Shown: piece after piece, positions 9,946-30,901 of the stretch | Position numbering within the stretch: the first letter of the stretch is position 1 | Layout: the number at the start of each line of letters is the position of its first letter | From: an uncultured Spirochaetota bacterium | Lineage (GTDB): Bacteria > Spirochaetota > Brevinematia > Brevinematales > JAOACQ01 | Assembly (NCBI GenBank): GCA_963783575.1 | Contig: CAWAOD010000014.1 | Location: 192,001 to 256,000 of the forward strand | Direction of reading: 5' to 3' | DNA length: 64,000 nt | Translations under genes and position numbers: made by a program | The notes under the pieces: generated by a model | What the model was told of the DNA's origin: nothing | The model's database searches: none | The model's input: the letters and a program-made list of their open reading frames with translations, nothing else

Positions 9946-10599
9946 ATGATAAACCGAATTTTAAATTGGTTGTTAATTAATATTGTGAGCAATACATTTA
10001 TGAAATTTGTTTATTTTATAATGATTTTTCCGCTTCTATCATTATTATCATGTACCGTAAAAGATTTGAATATAAAAAATGAATCTTCGCATAATAATCA
10101 ATTCAGTGATATTAAAAAAGAGAAAATTCATAAACAACCAGTGTATAAATTCTCTTATTCTCCGTATGATTCTATAGAAGTTCAAAATAAAGAAGCTTAT
10201 AATTATGCATTTAATATTATACTGAATAAGCTCATTTATTTCATTGAAAAAACAATTCCGAACAATTCTATAAATGTCATTGCGGTTTTTGAACTTAAAC
10301 CGGCAACTAAAAACCCAACTTTTCAGGAAAGGATGAATGGTAAAGCGGTAAGGGGCTGGAATATTTATGATGAAAATATTATTCCGATCGCAGAGCGGGA
10401 TATTGAAGAAATGAGCGGGGGTTTTGTCAGGGAAGATATGAAAAATATTCCCAAAGCATTTTATTATATTGAAATAAATGGAAATATGGGTAACGTCTAT
10501 ATCCGATACTGGATTCTCCAGTTCAGAAATTTTGATTTTATCTATAATCTTGAAAAAAATGGAAAATGGAGAATTGTTAATTCCCAGCAATTAAATTAA
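9946..10599 (+). CDS. Hypothetical lipoprotein
   Basis: LLSC lipobox after a hydrophobic stretch; true start may be ATG 10000 (MKFVYF). Confidence 0.55.
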   Translation: MINRILNWLLINIVSNTFMKFVYFIMIFPLLSLLSCTVKDLNIKNESSHNNQFSDIKKEKIHKQPVYKFSYSPYDSIEVQNKEAYNYAFNIILNKLIYFIEKTIPNNSINVIAVFELKPATKNPTFQERMNGKAVRGWNIYDENIIPIAERDIEEMSGGFVREDMKNIPKAFYYIEINGNMGNVYIRYWILQFRNFDFIYNLEKNGKWRIVNSQQLN

Positions 10600-19346: not shown

Positions 19347-20726
19347 TTACTTAAGCGGAATTTTTTCAATCCTGTCTATTTTTGTAATAAGCCAGTATCC
19401 ATGTTTTTTTATCAGAAATAACTTATCATTTTCATTAAACCCATGATAATCTAACTCTATTTTTTTATTTTCACCAAAAACCGGTTCCCATTTTTGATAA
19501 TAGACGGAATATATTGCGTTGGAAGAATTTTCTATTTCATTTGAAATAATTAGGTCGGTAATTCCATAAATATAAAGTGGGGGCATTAGTTTATTTTTAC
19601 CATCGGCAGCCCATTTCTCAGCGGAAAAATAGTTTTTTTCACCGTAAGCAGCGCTTTGTTTTGTTATGACATATAATGTCGAGACTTCATCGATTTCTTT
19701 TTTCCCGGCATTGTTTATAACACAATCCTGCATTGCCGGACTGTCAAGATTATTCATGCTTTCATAAAATAATTCAACCACCTTGCTTGATATAAATCCT
19801 TTTGTGATTCTTATGTTAAAAATTATTTTTTTAAAAGAAAATACCAATAAGATTACAACCGCTAATACTATTGATATAATTATGATATTTAATCTGTTTT
19901 TTTCTAAAAAAACGCTTCTGCCATAAATATGGTCCAATCTTTTCCTATATTTCCCCTGCAGTTTCATCAGATCTTTTTCTTCAACATTATCAATCTTCCT
20001 GATTACACCTTCTTTTATATAATTGCCGATAATTTCAAACCATTCAGATATGGAAACCGATGTCCATTTTTTTTCCATAAAAAAAAATAACAGATTGTCC
20101 GAAATTTCATTGTTAAGATAAAAATTGTTTAAAACCGGTTGTAAAACATTACCGATTCTGATTTTTTTATTCAACTCTTCTTCCGTTTTTCCGGAAAAAG
20201 GAAATTCTCCCGAAAGTATGCGGTATAATATTACTCCTATACTGTATGAGTTTTGAATCCGGTCTTCGGTGATATACGGATGATTTACGATAAAATAATT
20301 TCCGATTTTATATTCTTCATCTAAAGATTCTCTCAATAATTCCATAACTTTGTAAGGCAAAAACAGTATGGAGCCGTCTTTAAGGAAGTATATTGCATCA
20401 AGCTGAATCGGTATTGCGACGCCTCTCTTATTTTCAAGTTCATTAAGAGCCGAGACAAGCCTGTAAATATAATTAAGCCCTTCTTCAGAATTAAGGCTGA
20501 TAACTTCTGATAAAGAGGTACCTTCAAAATGAGGACCATAAAGATAGAGATTTTCTTTATGCAGAATTCCTGTGAAACGCCATTCTTCGATAGAATCGTC
20601 TTTCAGGATATAACCCGGATATTTTTTTAATTCGAGTAAATTCCTGAATGATGCATCGTCAGCATTAAAATTGAGATTAAATCCGCAATAAAGATTTTTG
20701 TCTTCTTTAATTTCAACAGGTTGCAT
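19347..20726 (-). CDS. Membrane-anchored kinase-like (pseudokinase) protein
   Basis: YSIGVILYRILSGEFPF resembles kinase subdomain IX; single TM helix; no HRD or DFG. Confidence 0.5.
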   Translation of the reverse strand: MQPVEIKEDKNLYCGFNLNFNADDASFRNLLELKKYPGYILKDDSIEEWRFTGILHKENLYLYGPHFEGTSLSEVISLNSEEGLNYIYRLVSALNELENKRGVAIPIQLDAIYFLKDGSILFLPYKVMELLRESLDEEYKIGNYFIVNHPYITEDRIQNSYSIGVILYRILSGEFPFSGKTEEELNKKIRIGNVLQPVLNNFYLNNEISDNLLFFFMEKKWTSVSISEWFEIIGNYIKEGVIRKIDNVEEKDLMKLQGKYRKRLDHIYGRSVFLEKNRLNIIIISIVLAVVILLVFSFKKIIFNIRITKGFISSKVVELFYESMNNLDSPAMQDCVINNAGKKEIDEVSTLYVITKQSAAYGEKNYFSAEKWAADGKNKLMPPLYIYGITDLIISNEIENSSNAIYSVYYQKWEPVFGENKKIELDYHGFNENDKLFLIKKHGYWLITKIDRIEKIPLK

Positions 20727-24697: not shown

Positions 24698-25484
24698 TTG
24701 AACATATTATTGACCAACGATGACGGATATTCCGCTCCCGGTATTCAAATATTAAAGAAAAAACTTTCCAGATGCCATAAGGTTTTTTTATGCGCACCGT
24801 TGAAGCAGATGAGCGCTTCCAGTCATGCCGATCACATTGTTTAAGCCTATGGAATTGATAAAAATAAATGAAAATGAATTCGCACTTGATGGAACACCCG
24901 CAGATTGCGTAAAAGTTTCGCTAATTCATCTTTTTAAAGATATAAATTTCGATATGGTTATTTCCGGAATAAACAACGGGCCGAATATGGGCGGTGATAT
25001 ATTTTATTCGGGTACCGTAGCTGGAGCTCGTGAAGGTACGATGAACCATATATTCTCAATTGCCGCATCTCTTGACGGCTGGTCTGAGAAAAAAAATTAC
25101 CAATTTTCATCAAACTTTATATTTGAGTTGACTAACTTGATTGATGTCAGTATACTTAAAGAAAATATTGTGTTAAATATCAATTTCCCGAACACTCAAA
25201 AACCGGCGGGAGTTAAAATTACACATATCGGCGAAAGAGTTTATAAGGATTTCATTAAATATGATGAAAGCGGCGGTAAATTTTTTGTTACGATTGCCGG
25301 TGATGATCCTGGGTTTCATGACAACAAGGGATCGGATTTAAATTCCGTTGCTGAAAATTATGTTTCCATTACGCCGCTTGTTAATGAGGTTTTTGATGAG
25401 AAATTTCGGGAGAGATTGAAATATCTTGAGAAGATAAAATGGAATGGATTGACATCAGAATTACGTAACTTTATATGGAGATAG
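24698..25484 (+). pseudogene. surE: 5'/3'-nucleotidase SurE, frameshifted near 24829
   Basis: TTG 24698 gives MNILLTNDDG...SASSHA; the +1 frame continues ITLF..GTPADCV..SGINNGPN..YSGTVAGA. Confidence 0.85.
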
Positions 25485-25888: not shown

Positions 25889-28800
25889 TTATGAATTCCC
25901 ATCAATAATAGTTTCAAATAAGAATACCTGTTCTGCGATTATTTTTTCTCCGTCAATTTTACCCTTTATGAGATATATTATGTTGTTTTTCAATATCTGC
26001 AGAAATTTTAAGTAAACTTTTGGGAAAAATACGACTTCTGTCGAACCTGTTCTGTCACTGAATTGTGAAAAAGCCATAGTACTGCCGTTCCTGGTTTTGA
26101 CTGACCGTATTTTATACAAATATCCTATAAATGATCCATAGCTGAGCCTGTCAAGATTTTCAATCTTGTCGAATTGATGTTCTTTGAGGTAATCCAGATA
26201 ACGGTCCAACGGATGATGGCTGATAAACAGATCTGTCGCTTCAAATTCAAATCTGAATTTGTCTTCTTTTGAGTCATTAAAATTGTTTAAATTATTATCC
26301 CCGGTAGATTGAACTGCCAACCTGCGGTTTATTAAAGTTTTAATTTCGGGAATCGATGAATAATCGGTAAATAAAGAACCTTCCTCATTAGATTGTTTTT
26401 TTGAGAAAAAACTTGATATATCCGGGAGAATTGATAAAAGCAATTTACGTGAATATCCATATTTATCAAAAACGCCGGCTTTAATAAGAAATTCAATAGA
26501 TTTTAAATGTAAACCCCGATCTTTTAATCTAAAATAAAAATCAATAAAATCTTTGTATTCGCCATTCTTATTTCTTTCCCTGACAATTTCCCTGGACAAT
26601 TTTGTACCTACATATTTAACAAATGCCAGACCGCAACGGATATTTCCATTTTCTTTTGAACACAAAGTCTTACTGTAATTTATATCTATTGATAAAGTAT
26701 GAAATAAATAAATTTTATTATGAAATCTAAGATCCATAAGATAACGGTTTATTCTGTCTTCATTTCCATGATTATTATTAATTGATGAAATATAATATTC
26801 GAGAGGATGATGATTTTTTAAATAAGCGCATGTATATGCATAAAGCGCGTATACAGTTGAATGGGCTTTGTTTATGCTGAAACTTCCAAAATCTACCAGA
26901 ATAGCAAATAGCCGGTTTGCCTGTTCAAATTCAAGACCGTTTGAAACACAGCTCTGTATAATTTCATCTTTAAGTGTTATGATATGTGTGTTATTCTTAG
27001 TGAATAAAGATTTTTTTAGATTCTCAATTTTGTCCCAGTCCAGACCGGCTTTTTCATGCATCAGTCTTAATAATTGTTCCTGATAAATAAATAAACCATG
27101 AGTATCGGAAGCAATTGAATCAAGCTCATCAACTTTATTGAAATTTAATTTTTGATTTTTATGGTTTATATATTTTTCAGTCAACCCGGATTTGAAAGAA
27201 ACAGGCCGGCATAATGCGATTATATCCGAAATTTCATTTATTGACTGTGGTTTTAATTTTTTTAACAATTCTCTTGTTATATTACTTTCCAATTGAAAAA
27301 CGGCTGTTGTATTCCCTTCAGCCAATAAATCAAAAGTATTTTGATCATTATCGGGAATTATTTTAATCTCCGATCTGCGCATAGTTTCATTTATTACCGA
27401 TATGATATGCAATCCAAGGATATCAATTTTGAAAATACCTGTATCCTCAAGATCATCATTAGGTATTTGGGCAAAATTATTTCTTTTTAAAGTATATTCA
27501 AGAGATGAATATTTATTAATTCCTTCCGGAATAATAATTATGCTTCCAGAATGAATTGAGCTATGAGAAATTAACCCCTCGATTTTTATGATATAATCAA
27601 AAAAATCGTGTATATCCGGGTCATTGTCATAGAAATCCTTCATTCTTCTTTCTTCTTTAATAAGATGGTATAAAAATCTGTTATCAGACATCTTGTTTTC
27701 TAAAAAATAATTATAAACAGATGGAATTAAGGACTTAATTTTATTGATCTTATCATGGTTAAGCTTAAAATAATCGGAAAATTCATTAATCAGTGAACGT
27801 GCTGTCGAATGATGTATTGATGCAGAATATGAAACATTCTGCCTGCCGTATTTCGAACTCAGAAAAGAAAAAATCAGATTTCTTTTTTCCCAGGCGATTT
27901 CAATAATAATTTCTGGCAAATGTAATTTTCCCAAATTCAGGAATGATTCAAAGAGTAAGTTGTATTTAACAGGATCAACTTTTGTTATTCCCAGAAGGAA
28001 TAAAATTAATGAAGAACAGGCTGAACCATTTCCATAACCGTAAGGAATTTTCTTTTTCTTTAAAAAATGAACCGTATCAAAAATAATCAAGAAAATATCT
28101 GAAATTTTCATTTTATAAAGCATATCAAGTTCTGCATCCAATCGATTCCGATATTCTTCTCTATCACAAAAATTTTTTAGTCGGAGAGAACATATATGTT
28201 TTACTTTTTCGAATGAATTTTTGTATAATACCGGAATCTTGAAGCTTTTTACATTAAAATCAGTTTCAATTTTTTGAAATAATATTTCTGAATTATCAAT
28301 TAAATTAATATGGTTTTTAAATATTAGATAAAAATCTTCTTTATTTTTCAGTGAATAATCAAATTCCGTTGATAAATGTGAATTTATTTCCTTTATAAAT
28401 GGATTTTTATGGCTGCTGTTTATAAGAATATCAAAAGCCGGTTTGTCTTTTAAGAAATACCTGGCTTCGCAGGAAGCAATGGCATTTAGATTGTAACGGT
28501 CGATTACATTAAGTAAATCCTTTATTTCTTGAATTTTATGGCCACCGGTATAATTTACCTCTACATAAAAATTATTTTTAAAATGTTTTTGATAACATTC
28601 AATAGTTTCTTCTAAGATTTGAGATGAAATCATATTTTTTATTAATTCGGATTCGGCCAAAATAGCCAGGCCTTCTTTACAGTGTATAAGGTTTTCAAGA
28701 GATATTTCATAATGATTTTCATTGATATAATTTTGATGAATTAATGTATTTAGACGGAACAAATTCTCAAGGCCGGCATTGTTTAAAGCAATCAGATTGA

Positions 28801-29038
28801 TGTGATATTGATTCTTTCCGTTTATACCCTTAATAAATATTTCCAATCCATAAACCGGTCTAATTCCTTCAGAACGGCATAACCCGGTCAATTTAATAAA
28901 TCCGTATGTAGAAAATGTATCTGTTAATGCGCATCCTTTAAAGCTATGATAGACAGCAAAACTAACCAGATCTTCTACCTTCAAAAGCGAAGATAAAAAA
29001 GAATATTCGCTGTGATTATGAAAGTTGATGAATCCCAT
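25889..29038 (-). CDS. DNA polymerase III alpha (DnaE)-like protein with degenerate catalytic motifs
   Basis: PHP HNHSEYS, LGITKVDP, KIDILGL, VFQLES, IYQEQ, HhH, OB fold; PDIDxD replaced by PEIIIE. Confidence 0.85.
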   Translation of the reverse strand: MGFINFHNHSEYSFLSSLLKVEDLVSFAVYHSFKGCALTDTFSTYGFIKLTGLCRSEGIRPVYGLEIFIKGINGKNQYHINLIALNNAGLENLFRLNTLIHQNYINENHYEISLENLIHCKEGLAILAESELIKNMISSQILEETIECYQKHFKNNFYVEVNYTGGHKIQEIKDLLNVIDRYNLNAIASCEARYFLKDKPAFDILINSSHKNPFIKEINSHLSTEFDYSLKNKEDFYLIFKNHINLIDNSEILFQKIETDFNVKSFKIPVLYKNSFEKVKHICSLRLKNFCDREEYRNRLDAELDMLYKMKISDIFLIIFDTVHFLKKKKIPYGYGNGSACSSLILFLLGITKVDPVKYNLLFESFLNLGKLHLPEIIIEIAWEKRNLIFSFLSSKYGRQNVSYSASIHHSTARSLINEFSDYFKLNHDKINKIKSLIPSVYNYFLENKMSDNRFLYHLIKEERRMKDFYDNDPDIHDFFDYIIKIEGLISHSSIHSGSIIIIPEGINKYSSLEYTLKRNNFAQIPNDDLEDTGIFKIDILGLHIISVINETMRRSEIKIIPDNDQNTFDLLAEGNTTAVFQLESNITRELLKKLKPQSINEISDIIALCRPVSFKSGLTEKYINHKNQKLNFNKVDELDSIASDTHGLFIYQEQLLRLMHEKAGLDWDKIENLKKSLFTKNNTHIITLKDEIIQSCVSNGLEFEQANRLFAILVDFGSFSINKAHSTVYALYAYTCAYLKNHHPLEYYISSINNNHGNEDRINRYLMDLRFHNKIYLFHTLSIDINYSKTLCSKENGNIRCGLAFVKYVGTKLSREIVRERNKNGEYKDFIDFYFRLKDRGLHLKSIEFLIKAGVFDKYGYSRKLLLSILPDISSFFSKKQSNEEGSLFTDYSSIPEIKTLINRRLAVQSTGDNNLNNFNDSKEDKFRFEFEATDLFISHHPLDRYLDYLKEHQFDKIENLDRLSYGSFIGYLYKIRSVKTRNGSTMAFSQFSDRTGSTEVVFFPKVYLKFLQILKNNIIYLIKGKIDGEKIIAEQVFLFETIIDGNS

Positions 29039-29041
29039 TCA

Positions 29042-30502
29042 TCAATCAACCAATTTTTGAATCTGCTTACCCGCGGCTTTAATGAAGGAATCGAATACTC
29101 CGCTTGCAGATATAGATGTAGCGCTTATTTTGATATTCTTCGCCGAAAGAATTTCACCGCTTGAAGTATCCAGGAGCTGTGCTGAAACTGAATATACTCC
29201 GAGATATCTTTCCAATGTTTCATCATACTTTGGGGGTTCAAATGATGATACAAATAATACAAATGCCCTTTTAATGCCTATTACCGATAGTTTGTCCAAT
29301 GCGTTTTTTTTCGCTTGAGATATGTCGTCTAAAGAAACTGTATCAGAAAAATTTACAACTTTATACCCGCGGTCAATTAAAAAGGATTGGGCTTCGGAAG
29401 CGAGATTCGGAAGCTGTTTTAAGCCGTCATCCGATTTAAGTATCGCAATGACAACAATTGGTATGGTTCTATTCTGCTCGGATATAGTTTTAAACTCGCT
29501 ATAAACGGATATTTTACCGGCTTTTTCCTGAAGAGTGGATGAATATGTTTGATAATCTTTACCTAAATCGGAAATATCCTGAAAGTCAATATTTAATAGT
29601 GCATAGAGTCTATTCTCGTTATTGACTTCTTTTAATTTGTTTATCGTGCAGATAACAATACCGTTGTCATCTGATACGGCACTTCTTGAATAATCACCGT
29701 CGTTGTTCCTGAGTACAAATGATATTTTTAGACCCCCGGCAGGAATTTTTCCTTTTTCGGATGAGTAAAATACCCTGTATGAAAAAGAGCCTCCTTTTGC
29801 AGTATCAATTATGTTTGTATTGCTGTATGCTTCTATAAAAGTATTTTCCAGGACTTTACCCGCTTTGTTTATATAAATCGGAAATTCATCGGTCCTTTCT
29901 TTCACTCTTGTGGAGCTTATAGCTGCTGTAAGGTATGAATTGACAGCATCCGATATTTTTCCGGAATCCAATGCCTGATCTGCAACTTTGAGGCTGTTGT
30001 CAACCAATGCCAATTTTCTTTGAATCTCGGATAATATCCTGTTCCTCTCCCTTTCAAGATTTTTATTGGAAATCCTGGACAGAACCCATACTTTATAATA
30101 AACAAGTCCTGAGTCCTTGTTTTCTTCTTTATAAGTATCAATAAGTTCCACACCCGAAAGATTCACAGCGCTCTGGCTTTTAACATTTTCCTGATAACTT
30201 TTCCTTAATGTCTCATTATCGTTTAAACTGCCTGAAGTAGTAAATACCTTATCAACGGTAGTCTCTTCAAATATCGTATTGGCGATTTTCCCCTTGGCGT
30301 TTTGAAGAGCTTTATCCTTAATTTCCTCAAACGATCCAATATCCTCGGTATAGCCGACCACATATAAATATTCCTTATCATGATTCGGCTGTGTAATCCA
30401 GGTCGGTTCGCCGGAAATAACAGTATTTGTGGCTGTGTAAACAGTATTTATTATAAAATACAAACTTAAAAGAAAAATAATTAATTTCAATGAACTTTTC
30501 AT
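29042..30502 (-). CDS. Exported protein with LPP20-like N-terminal domain
   Basis: Signal peptide; P.WI..Y.VG..A.QNAK..IA pattern; GGAGG RBS. Confidence 0.55.
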   Translation of the reverse strand: MKSSLKLIIFLLSLYFIINTVYTATNTVISGEPTWITQPNHDKEYLYVVGYTEDIGSFEEIKDKALQNAKGKIANTIFEETTVDKVFTTSGSLNDNETLRKSYQENVKSQSAVNLSGVELIDTYKEENKDSGLVYYKVWVLSRISNKNLERERNRILSEIQRKLALVDNSLKVADQALDSGKISDAVNSYLTAAISSTRVKERTDEFPIYINKAGKVLENTFIEAYSNTNIIDTAKGGSFSYRVFYSSEKGKIPAGGLKISFVLRNNDGDYSRSAVSDDNGIVICTINKLKEVNNENRLYALLNIDFQDISDLGKDYQTYSSTLQEKAGKISVYSEFKTISEQNRTIPIVVIAILKSDDGLKQLPNLASEAQSFLIDRGYKVVNFSDTVSLDDISQAKKNALDKLSVIGIKRAFVLFVSSFEPPKYDETLERYLGVYSVSAQLLDTSSGEILSAKNIKISATSISASGVFDSFIKAAGKQIQKLVD

Positions 30503-30901
30503 TCAATCCTCCGCTTTTATTGATATTAAATTACTAAAAATATTTAGTTTTTTAGAACAGCCCTTAATATAATACTAACTCAAATCATTATAATCAACAA
30601 ATTATAATTTTTCAATCAAATATAATTATCAAATTTGATTTTATATTGATTATATCAAATACTGTGCCAATTAATTATTATAAAAAAATAATTATTTCTA
30701 TTGGCCAAGCATTCATCTTGAATACTTTATTAGATAAAAACTTAATTATAATGTAAGATTATTATGAAAAAGAGGAGATTTTGTATGAGAAATTCCCCCT
30801 TTAAAAGGGAGGCAGGAAAATATAATTTATCTGCGGTTTGAATCAATAACCGATTTTAATTAGAAATGATATATCTTAATCGATACAGTATAAAATAATA
30901 T

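Follow-up and report, generated by a model that had tools for sequence, protein, structure and literature searches.

The dnaE-B gene and its product

The window analysed here, a 64,000-nucleotide stretch of the genome of an uncultured Spirochaetota bacterium (assembly GCA_963783575.1, contig CAWAOD010000014.1, positions 192,001 to 256,000), carries an open reading frame (ORF) for a second DnaE, a paralogue of DNA polymerase III's alpha subunit, which we call DnaE-B (Table 1). Judging from its sequence and those of its relatives, this protein is very probably both dead as a polymerase and under selection. A first-pass annotation of the window had described 1049 uninterrupted codons, with HhH, OB and a clamp-motif-like EGSLF present and the tau-binding C-terminus absent; the ORF was confirmed, and Pfam and alignment agree on the domains. 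Pfam placed PHP at residues 6-162, the NTPase/palm at 292-542, the fingers at 551-701, HhH at 782-865 and OB at 977-1029, and the canonical DnaE copy extends about 110 alignment columns past the end of the query, where the tau-binding C-terminal domain (CTD) is missing. The AlphaFold2 model had a predicted local distance difference test score (pLDDT) of 92.3 and a predicted template modelling score (pTM) of 0.90, and its top Foldseek matches were DnaE structures (TM-score by query, 0.73-0.84). With a PHP-Pol3-(HhH)2 core, a C-terminal OB and the DnaE fold, the query is a C-family protein of DnaE-type descent.

DnaE-B is not the only DnaE of this organism, as a canonical dnaE with intact motifs and a CTD lies on another contig (C9). 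The two proteins are 27-28% identical and the query branch is not sister to the canonical copy. They were the only C-family matches in the genome, which is 89.85% complete, and no PolC-like third match was found there.

Table 1. Features of the dnaE-B locus (positions in the window).
Feature	Position	Strand	Remarks
dnaE-B, 1049-aa DnaE paralogue, polymerase site apparently inactivated, no tau-binding CTD	25889..29038	-	uninterrupted ORF
PHP domain, aa 1-262	28253..29038	-	metal site degenerate clade-wide; 42/46 clade-invariant residues kept in query
GNGS in place of GRGS (E. coli R362 to N337)	28022..28033	-	alignment
PEIIIE in place of PDxDxD (D401 to E376, D403 to I378, D405 to E380)	27899..27916	-	alignment
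KID, K553/D555 equivalents retained as K537, D539	27422..27430	-	alignment
(HhH)2 region, aa 782-865, constraint persists	26444..26695	-	
EGSLF, aa 886-890, at internal beta-clamp motif position	26369..26383	-	alignment to E. coli DnaE
OB fold core, aa 977-1029	25952..26110	-	chain terminates shortly beyond
LPP20-like protein, signal-peptide-like N-terminus (by eye)	29042..30502	-	3 nt upstream of dnaE-B; arrangement shared by 20/22 loci
sigma70-like promoter match TTGAAA-17-TATAAT (11/12)	30587..30615	-	85 nt before LPP20-like start

The polymerase active site of DnaE-B

Residue equivalences were taken from an alignment to E. coli DnaE (5fku). Sections 15 and 17 of a 2014 survey (PMC3919608) describe metal binding by D401, D403 and D555, the clamp motif, and tau binding by the CTD, and section 17 calls the three aspartates "absolutely conserved" in family C. 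The triad of active C-family polymerases reads E376/I378/D539 in the query, with E380 at the position of D405, and four arginines are replaced (N337 for R362, S365 for R390, K371 for R396 and K675 for R709). Two of three catalytic aspartates had been reported as lost, and GRGS as changed to GNGS. The arginine change holds, and D401 and D403 are both replaced while D555 is kept, but D401 has become Glu, so only D403 was lost non-conservatively.

Two other changes that had been taken as signs of decay do not qualify as such. The nine-residue PHP metal site HHDHEH[C/H]DH is broken in the query by substitutions of D, H and H ligands (HSEYSFLSS, TDTF, CEARY), but it is degenerate across the entire DnaE-B clade, and CEARY, CESRY or CETRY for TNDxHY, read as SCEARY in the query, occurs in catalytically intact orthologues too. 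LRKAL for LRRAM is likewise common to intact orthologues. Since intact orthologues have them, both changes are traits of the clade and not marks of the query's inactivation.

We compared 22 chosen catalytic or substrate positions in 17 triad-intact orthologues, 20 dead ones and 10 canonical full-length DnaEs. Across all intact and canonical sequences 21 positions were invariant and the remaining one was R or K; the query has lost 9 of the 22 and other dead copies more, which against that invariance is not chance drift. Active-site states are bimodal between intact and dead members, and because the two groups were defined by the triad, only the non-triad positions are independent evidence of this. 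Among dead members, residue 653 has also changed, YQEQ becoming YEEQ in genus g3, genome G013 and protein P0129 and YREE in most g8-type sequences, possibly by convergence after inactivation.

Distribution of DnaE-B and loss of the catalytic triad

Forty-one genomes were compared, and the whole class of 43 was searched with a PHP-domain profile. DnaE-B is present as a single copy in 22 of 23 genomes of families f1 to f5 of one Brevinematia order, the one miss being a genome that is 57% complete. When 1.84 billion representatives were searched without an index, 21 clusters scored at least 166 bits and scores then fell to 140, which makes this a small clade with clear limits; the lower-scoring P0140 was admitted by eye. 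A metagenome scan with the query reduced 125 candidate stretches to one locus, which holds an unrelated, intact DnaE. In a tree of 47 DnaEs, which included no labelled DnaE2 sequences, a long branch separated DnaE-B from the canonical copies; all trees were quick LG+G4 trees in which long branches may mislead. That DnaE-B is a displaced ancestral replicase was considered and rejected, as canonical DnaEs from the order and from family f7 form one clade (support 99) apart from it.

The triad is kept in 10 of the 22 genomes (in two of which an assembly gap or contig end divides the gene) and lost in 12, namely the query, all five members of genus g3, both of g7 and all four of g8. Databases supplied eight more dead and several intact DnaE-B proteins. 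Relatives receive the labels "DNA polymerase III alpha" or "PHP domain protein" from annotation pipelines, and such labels conceal the inactivation. The thumb is mostly deleted in 4/5 g3 copies and in P0129, and by alignment the g8 form is without the GRGS loop, the PDxDxD strand, the thumb and the KxD strand. Its model is still a DnaE-like chain (pLDDT, 83.6; Z 25.7 and root mean square deviation 6.0 over 606 residues to 4jom). Deletions of catalytic strands or thumb in the dead lineages are thus in-frame and a DnaE-like fold remains. One member of the most reduced form, P0134, is recorded by its source as a protein of Thermospira aquatica, a species listed among cultured spirochaetes.

On a host tree built from canonical DnaE and the gene adjacent to dnaE-B, with 19 of the 22 genomes scored, the triad changes state three times: in the query together with g3, in g7 and in g8. 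The adjacent LPP20-like gene alone rejects a single dead clade (approximately unbiased test, p-AU 1.9e-6), and a clade uniting all 12 dead copies is rejected by DnaE-B's PHP, HhH and OB columns (p 0.008). The triad was probably lost two to four times, most likely three, and we infer loss as the direction of change, since the triad is present in canonical DnaEs and deleted from some dead forms. The query belongs to the orthologues of a second DnaE confined to this lineage; in the ancestral protein the polymerase site was intact and the PHP exonuclease site dead, and a tau-binding CTD was absent. The first-pass annotation had proposed a maintained non-catalytic protein; retention under selection agrees with it, but the intact orthologues in 10/22 genomes and the repeated loss had been missed.

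Selection and domain-wise constraint

None of the 12 dead genome copies, one of them cut at a contig end, has an internal stop. The ratio of nonsynonymous to synonymous substitution (dN/dS), a rough counting estimate at high dS, was 0.11-0.15 in the five of ten dead pairs with estimable dS and 0.10-0.11 in two intact pairs; dS was saturated in the other five dead pairs, including the query and G011 (dN 0.56). Neutral simulation left 0 of 200 runs without a stop by the time that 10% of the residues were changed. Neutral decay with stops, which would have told against a maintained protein, is thus not what the dead orthologues display, and stops, frameshifts or a dN/dS near 1, as expected of a pseudogene, were not observed.

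Constraint is unevenly distributed over the protein. Residues invariant in the 17 intact members were retained in the 20 dead ones at 0.67 in PHP, 0.36 and 0.28 in the palm, 0.23 in the thumb, 0.41 in the fingers, 0.67 in HhH and 0.78 in the clamp/OB region. The query itself keeps 74/82 such residues in PHP, HhH and clamp/OB vs 82/117 in palm, thumb and fingers (Fisher p=0.0008). On a fixed host tree, its branch rate relative to canonical DnaE was 1.74 for HhH, clamp and OB, within the 1.35-1.82 of intact lineages, 5.1 for palm and thumb (intact, 0.7-2.7), 4.4 for the fingers and 2.65 for PHP. At the clamp-motif position, L889-F890 is invariant in 20/20 dead and 17/17 intact members, and section 17 of PMC3919608 names positions 1, 4 and 5 of this motif as most important. 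Constraint has moved from the palm and thumb to PHP, HhH, the clamp-position Leu-Phe and OB, and that selection has preserved the clamp-motif Leu-Phe, HhH and OB speaks for a non-catalytic protein that is being maintained.

Genomic neighbourhood and replication gene content

The start of dnaE-B lies -1 to 6 nt from the stop of an LPP20-like gene in 20/22 loci; one of the others is cut by a contig end and the other, in genome G003, is without this neighbour. The LPP20-like protein is kept across the order except in family f6 (0/12), with distant homologues in f7 and a weaker paralogue in many relatives, and G003 seems to have lost the orthologue. The promoter match in Table 1 is the best of 43 in the region, where the total number of matches is at chance level, and its place before the LPP20-like gene suggests that the two genes form a constitutive operon.

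The earlier remark that no imuA or imuB lies nearby is borne out by the 11 proteins scanned with Pfam (the ORF and ten neighbours). The neighbours were housekeeping or unknown genes by Pfam, and no defence library was searched. Elsewhere the genome has one RecA, one DnaN and two Y-family genes (DinB-like and UmuC-like), and the LexA domain PF01726 was not found in it, at 89.85% completeness. A umuD-SRAP-umuC cassette lies elsewhere on the dnaE-B contig (L078:3333-5738; G000:C14:325332-327734) in this genome without a detected LexA DNA-binding domain; SRAP stands beside umuC in 8/8 loci and umuD in 6/8. The sole DnaQ/RNase_T-domain match of the genome (G000:C4, about 9994-10473, minus strand) falls in a 768-codon frame with a RecJ-like start (DHH region, by eye). 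Frames of about 570-830 codons with such matches are present in most of the order's genomes and in 0/8 of f7, and may represent a RecJ with an embedded 3'-5' exonuclease. In f6 genomes (e.g., L026, L030, L031 and L065-L070) the sole DnaE, the canonical one, has a PHP metal site that is degenerate, with TNPVKY or TNPILY for TNDxHY, and no standalone DnaQ was seen there.

Discussion

DnaE-B shares the PHP-palm-thumb-fingers-(HhH)2-clamp motif-OB order and the fold of DnaE1, the Pol III alpha subunit (E. coli 5fku and 2hnh, Taq 3e0d, M. tuberculosis 7pu7 and the C9 dnaE of its own genome), and its best NCBIfam equivalog match is the DnaE1 model PRK05673 (592 bits, under the 1002-bit cut-off). It differs from DnaE1 in its broken triad and absent CTD. 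Like DnaE2 (ImuC), as presented in the consulted parts of PMC3919608 and PMC12926913, it is an accessory second DnaE with a degenerate PHP domain and no CTD, but it scores lower with the DnaE2 model PRK05672 (306), and the C-terminal motif SRDF[H/R] of about 77% of DnaE2 proteins was not found at the C-termini of the clade. No linked imuA, imuB or PolY was found among the neighbours (ImuB-C was not searched for); some DnaE2B also have no known partner (PMC12926913, in part). Moreover, in the ImuA-ImuB-DnaE2 and DnaE2B-PolY-RecA mutasomes DnaE2 is the active partner, whereas here the DnaE is the dead one. DnaE3, in the sources at hand, resembles DnaE-B in its dead PHP, a weak clamp motif of Leu-Phe only and an often absent CTD, but is essential, active and paired with PolC, a pairing that the query genome does not offer. 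As far as compared, the query has the attributes neither of an active polymerase nor of a DnaE1 replicase, a DnaE3 or a mutasome-linked DnaE2.

Functionally, the query may work most like ImuB or the dead module of Pol epsilon. ImuB, a dead Y-family polymerase, has been retained as a subunit that organises others and carries a clamp-binding region (PMC6511836, in part), although its fold and family are unrelated and it has a RecA-NT motif, ImuB-C and known partners. Inactivated B-family modules, namely the Pol epsilon C-terminal module, archaeal PolB2 and poxvirus F12, are precedents for polymerase folds kept without catalysis or with doubtful catalysis; they belong to a different family, and intact and dead orthologues at one locus are not described for them in the literature consulted.

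We consider it on balance probable that DnaE-B is a selected C-family pseudo-polymerase with a non-catalytic, clamp-docked role. From what is known of DnaE, the query would make no DNA. It would be co-expressed constitutively behind the LPP20-like gene, dock on the beta-clamp through its Leu-Phe motif and HhH region, and contact DNA with OB and HhH; without tau binding, it could not enter the holoenzyme as a replicase. On clamp-loaded DNA it may then serve as a scaffold or accessory, by occupying the clamp or by tethering a partner through its PHP surface. Because every independent loss kept the same modules, the non-catalytic job probably predates the loss and was present in the active enzyme, synthesis being the dispensable half. 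The first-pass annotation had suggested DNA or clamp binding, and the retained clamp Leu-Phe, HhH and OB are in line with this, but several dead lineages have deleted the thumb, which weakens the case for gripping of primer-template in the polymerase groove.

Several observations weigh against this interpretation. Of QL[S/D]LF, the query motif has no Gln; Leu-Phe by itself is a weak sign, and one towards which the aligner could be biased. No partner for the PHP surface emerged, as the query genome yielded no standalone DnaQ. DnaE-B was not found in 12 f6 and 8 f7 genomes, so its job is dispensable there. The query is also the least decayed dead copy, with K537, D539, H496 and Glu at D401 and D405 kept, and the shift in constraint is incomplete, as PHP is somewhat relaxed in dead lineages (2.65-3.96 vs 1.3-1.8) and palm and thumb, with dN/dS of 0.15-0.21 in four dead pairs, are relaxed but not free. 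Regarding the number of losses, a single clade of 11 dead copies without the query is not rejected by the PHP, HhH and OB columns (p-AU 0.09), and the full-length tree joins 19/20 dead sequences at support 96 with the query among the intact ones, a grouping that long branches may drive. Finally, PolB2 was once predicted to be inactive (PMC2527604, in part) but section 24 of PMC12926913 reports it to be active, as an extender that is error-prone.

The best-surviving alternative, which we regard as unlikely though worth keeping in view, is that a dead and selected DnaE-B was exapted away from the fork for a structural, sensing or metabolite-binding task resting chiefly on its PHP barrel, possibly tied to an envelope function of the LPP20-like protein. 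Clade-specific residues conserved in the dead copies are indeed most numerous in PHP (T44, P79, Y163 and H243), the thumb deletions speak against gripping of duplex DNA, and the LPP20-like gene is linked in 20/22 loci, with both genes not found in the 12 f6 genomes. However, the best-kept parts are the clamp-position Leu-Phe, HhH and OB, and the LPP20-like partner looks exported. Each gene also occurs without the other, dnaE-B in G003 and LPP20-like genes in f7, and a gap of -1 to 6 nt can by itself keep two selected genes linked. Simple hitch-hiking of dnaE-B on the LPP20-like gene was rejected, since G003 retains dnaE-B without it.

Rather less probable is a brake or decoy, in which DnaE-B would compete for the beta-clamp with Pol III, DinB or Pol V, or absorb phage proteins that target DnaE or the clamp. 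The docking parts are kept while the chemistry is lost, and a umuC-like gene is present in 7/12 dead vs 1/10 intact genomes, although kin are not independent and the four g8 genomes are dead without a Y-family match. A phage decoy would be expected to evolve fast or be patchily distributed, whereas dnaE-B is vertical, single-copy and under purifying selection, and the neighbours, as scanned with Pfam and with no defence library, are housekeeping or unknown genes. The idea that replacement by Pol V caused the inactivation was set aside, as it fits 7/12 dead genomes but not g8 or G011, and membership in an SOS cassette was likewise dropped, with no LexA domain found and no linked PolY.

It is improbable that the query keeps a weak or altered nucleotidyl transfer through E376, E380 and D539. 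Three acidic residues do lie near the site, the palm is confidently folded in the model, K537 and H496 are kept and PolB2 is a precedent, but D403 is Ile, four conserved arginines are replaced, and in relatives that have no catalytic strands the gene is retained under equal selection. Slow neutral decay of a pseudogene that an operon carries with it is the least credible reading: the overall rate in dead lineages (2.4-4.1 times canonical DnaE vs 1.1-1.9 in intact ones) and the GC content at third codon positions (0.255 vs 0.31-0.41 in four other genes) fit it, but the stop-free copies, the low dN/dS, the domain-selective conservation, the in-frame deletions and the neutral simulation largely refute it.

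A proofreader scaffold, with PHP binding epsilon, was also considered. The K63-P equivalent is K in 85% and P in 95% of dead copies and Arg-Pro in the query, but the idea is not supported, as the sole DnaQ-domain match is RecJ-like and a similar-sized match occurs in f6, which is without dnaE-B.

The pseudo-polymerase theme is known, and it is extended here to the C-family, in a case where intact orthologues occupy the same locus and loss has recurred. Of the polymerase families, C is the one with catalytic aspartates called absolutely conserved in the consulted part of a published survey (PMC3919608). The consulted part of PMC12926913 treats dead PHP domains and inactive Y-family groups but contains no polymerase-dead C-family group, and the searched part of its supplement has no mention of Thermospira, Brevinema or "inactive DnaE". 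DnaEX, a label for diverged extra DnaE copies, is not described as inactive in the parts of the literature consulted. We found no natural dead DnaE in the literature, the supplementary DnaEX lists of PMC3919608 and most subscription journals being outside the scope of the search.

DnaE-B may represent a recurrent, undescribed bacterial class of C-family pseudo-polymerases with a real function at the replisome or clamp, a proposal to which we give somewhat less than even chances. If true, the Brevinematia clade shows the transition from an intact enzyme through point-inactivated and thumb-less forms to a 780-aa form without catalytic strands, and it exposes a non-catalytic function of Pol III alpha in PHP, HhH, the clamp motif and OB, which would be the equivalent in bacteria of the dead module of Pol epsilon. 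Such a function of the Pol III alpha scaffold is implied by a DnaE that is dead yet under selection. Because intact and dead orthologues share a locus and loss is recurrent, DnaE-B is a natural experiment with built-in positive controls, whose comparison shows which modules bear the non-catalytic function, and the T. aquatica protein P0134 makes bench work possible.

Other observations in the window and genome

Next to the features in Table 1, a surE ORF (window 24825-25484, plus strand) matched Pfam SurE only from profile position 44, so its start may lie upstream or its N-terminus may be missing. A 459-aa membrane protein (window 19347-20726, minus strand) gave a very weak protein-kinase match (E 0.0009) with no obvious catalytic motifs and is a possible pseudokinase. 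Contigs C7 and C17 of the assembly have GC contents of 52% and 49% vs 33-39% elsewhere, pointing to possible contamination or mobile DNA.

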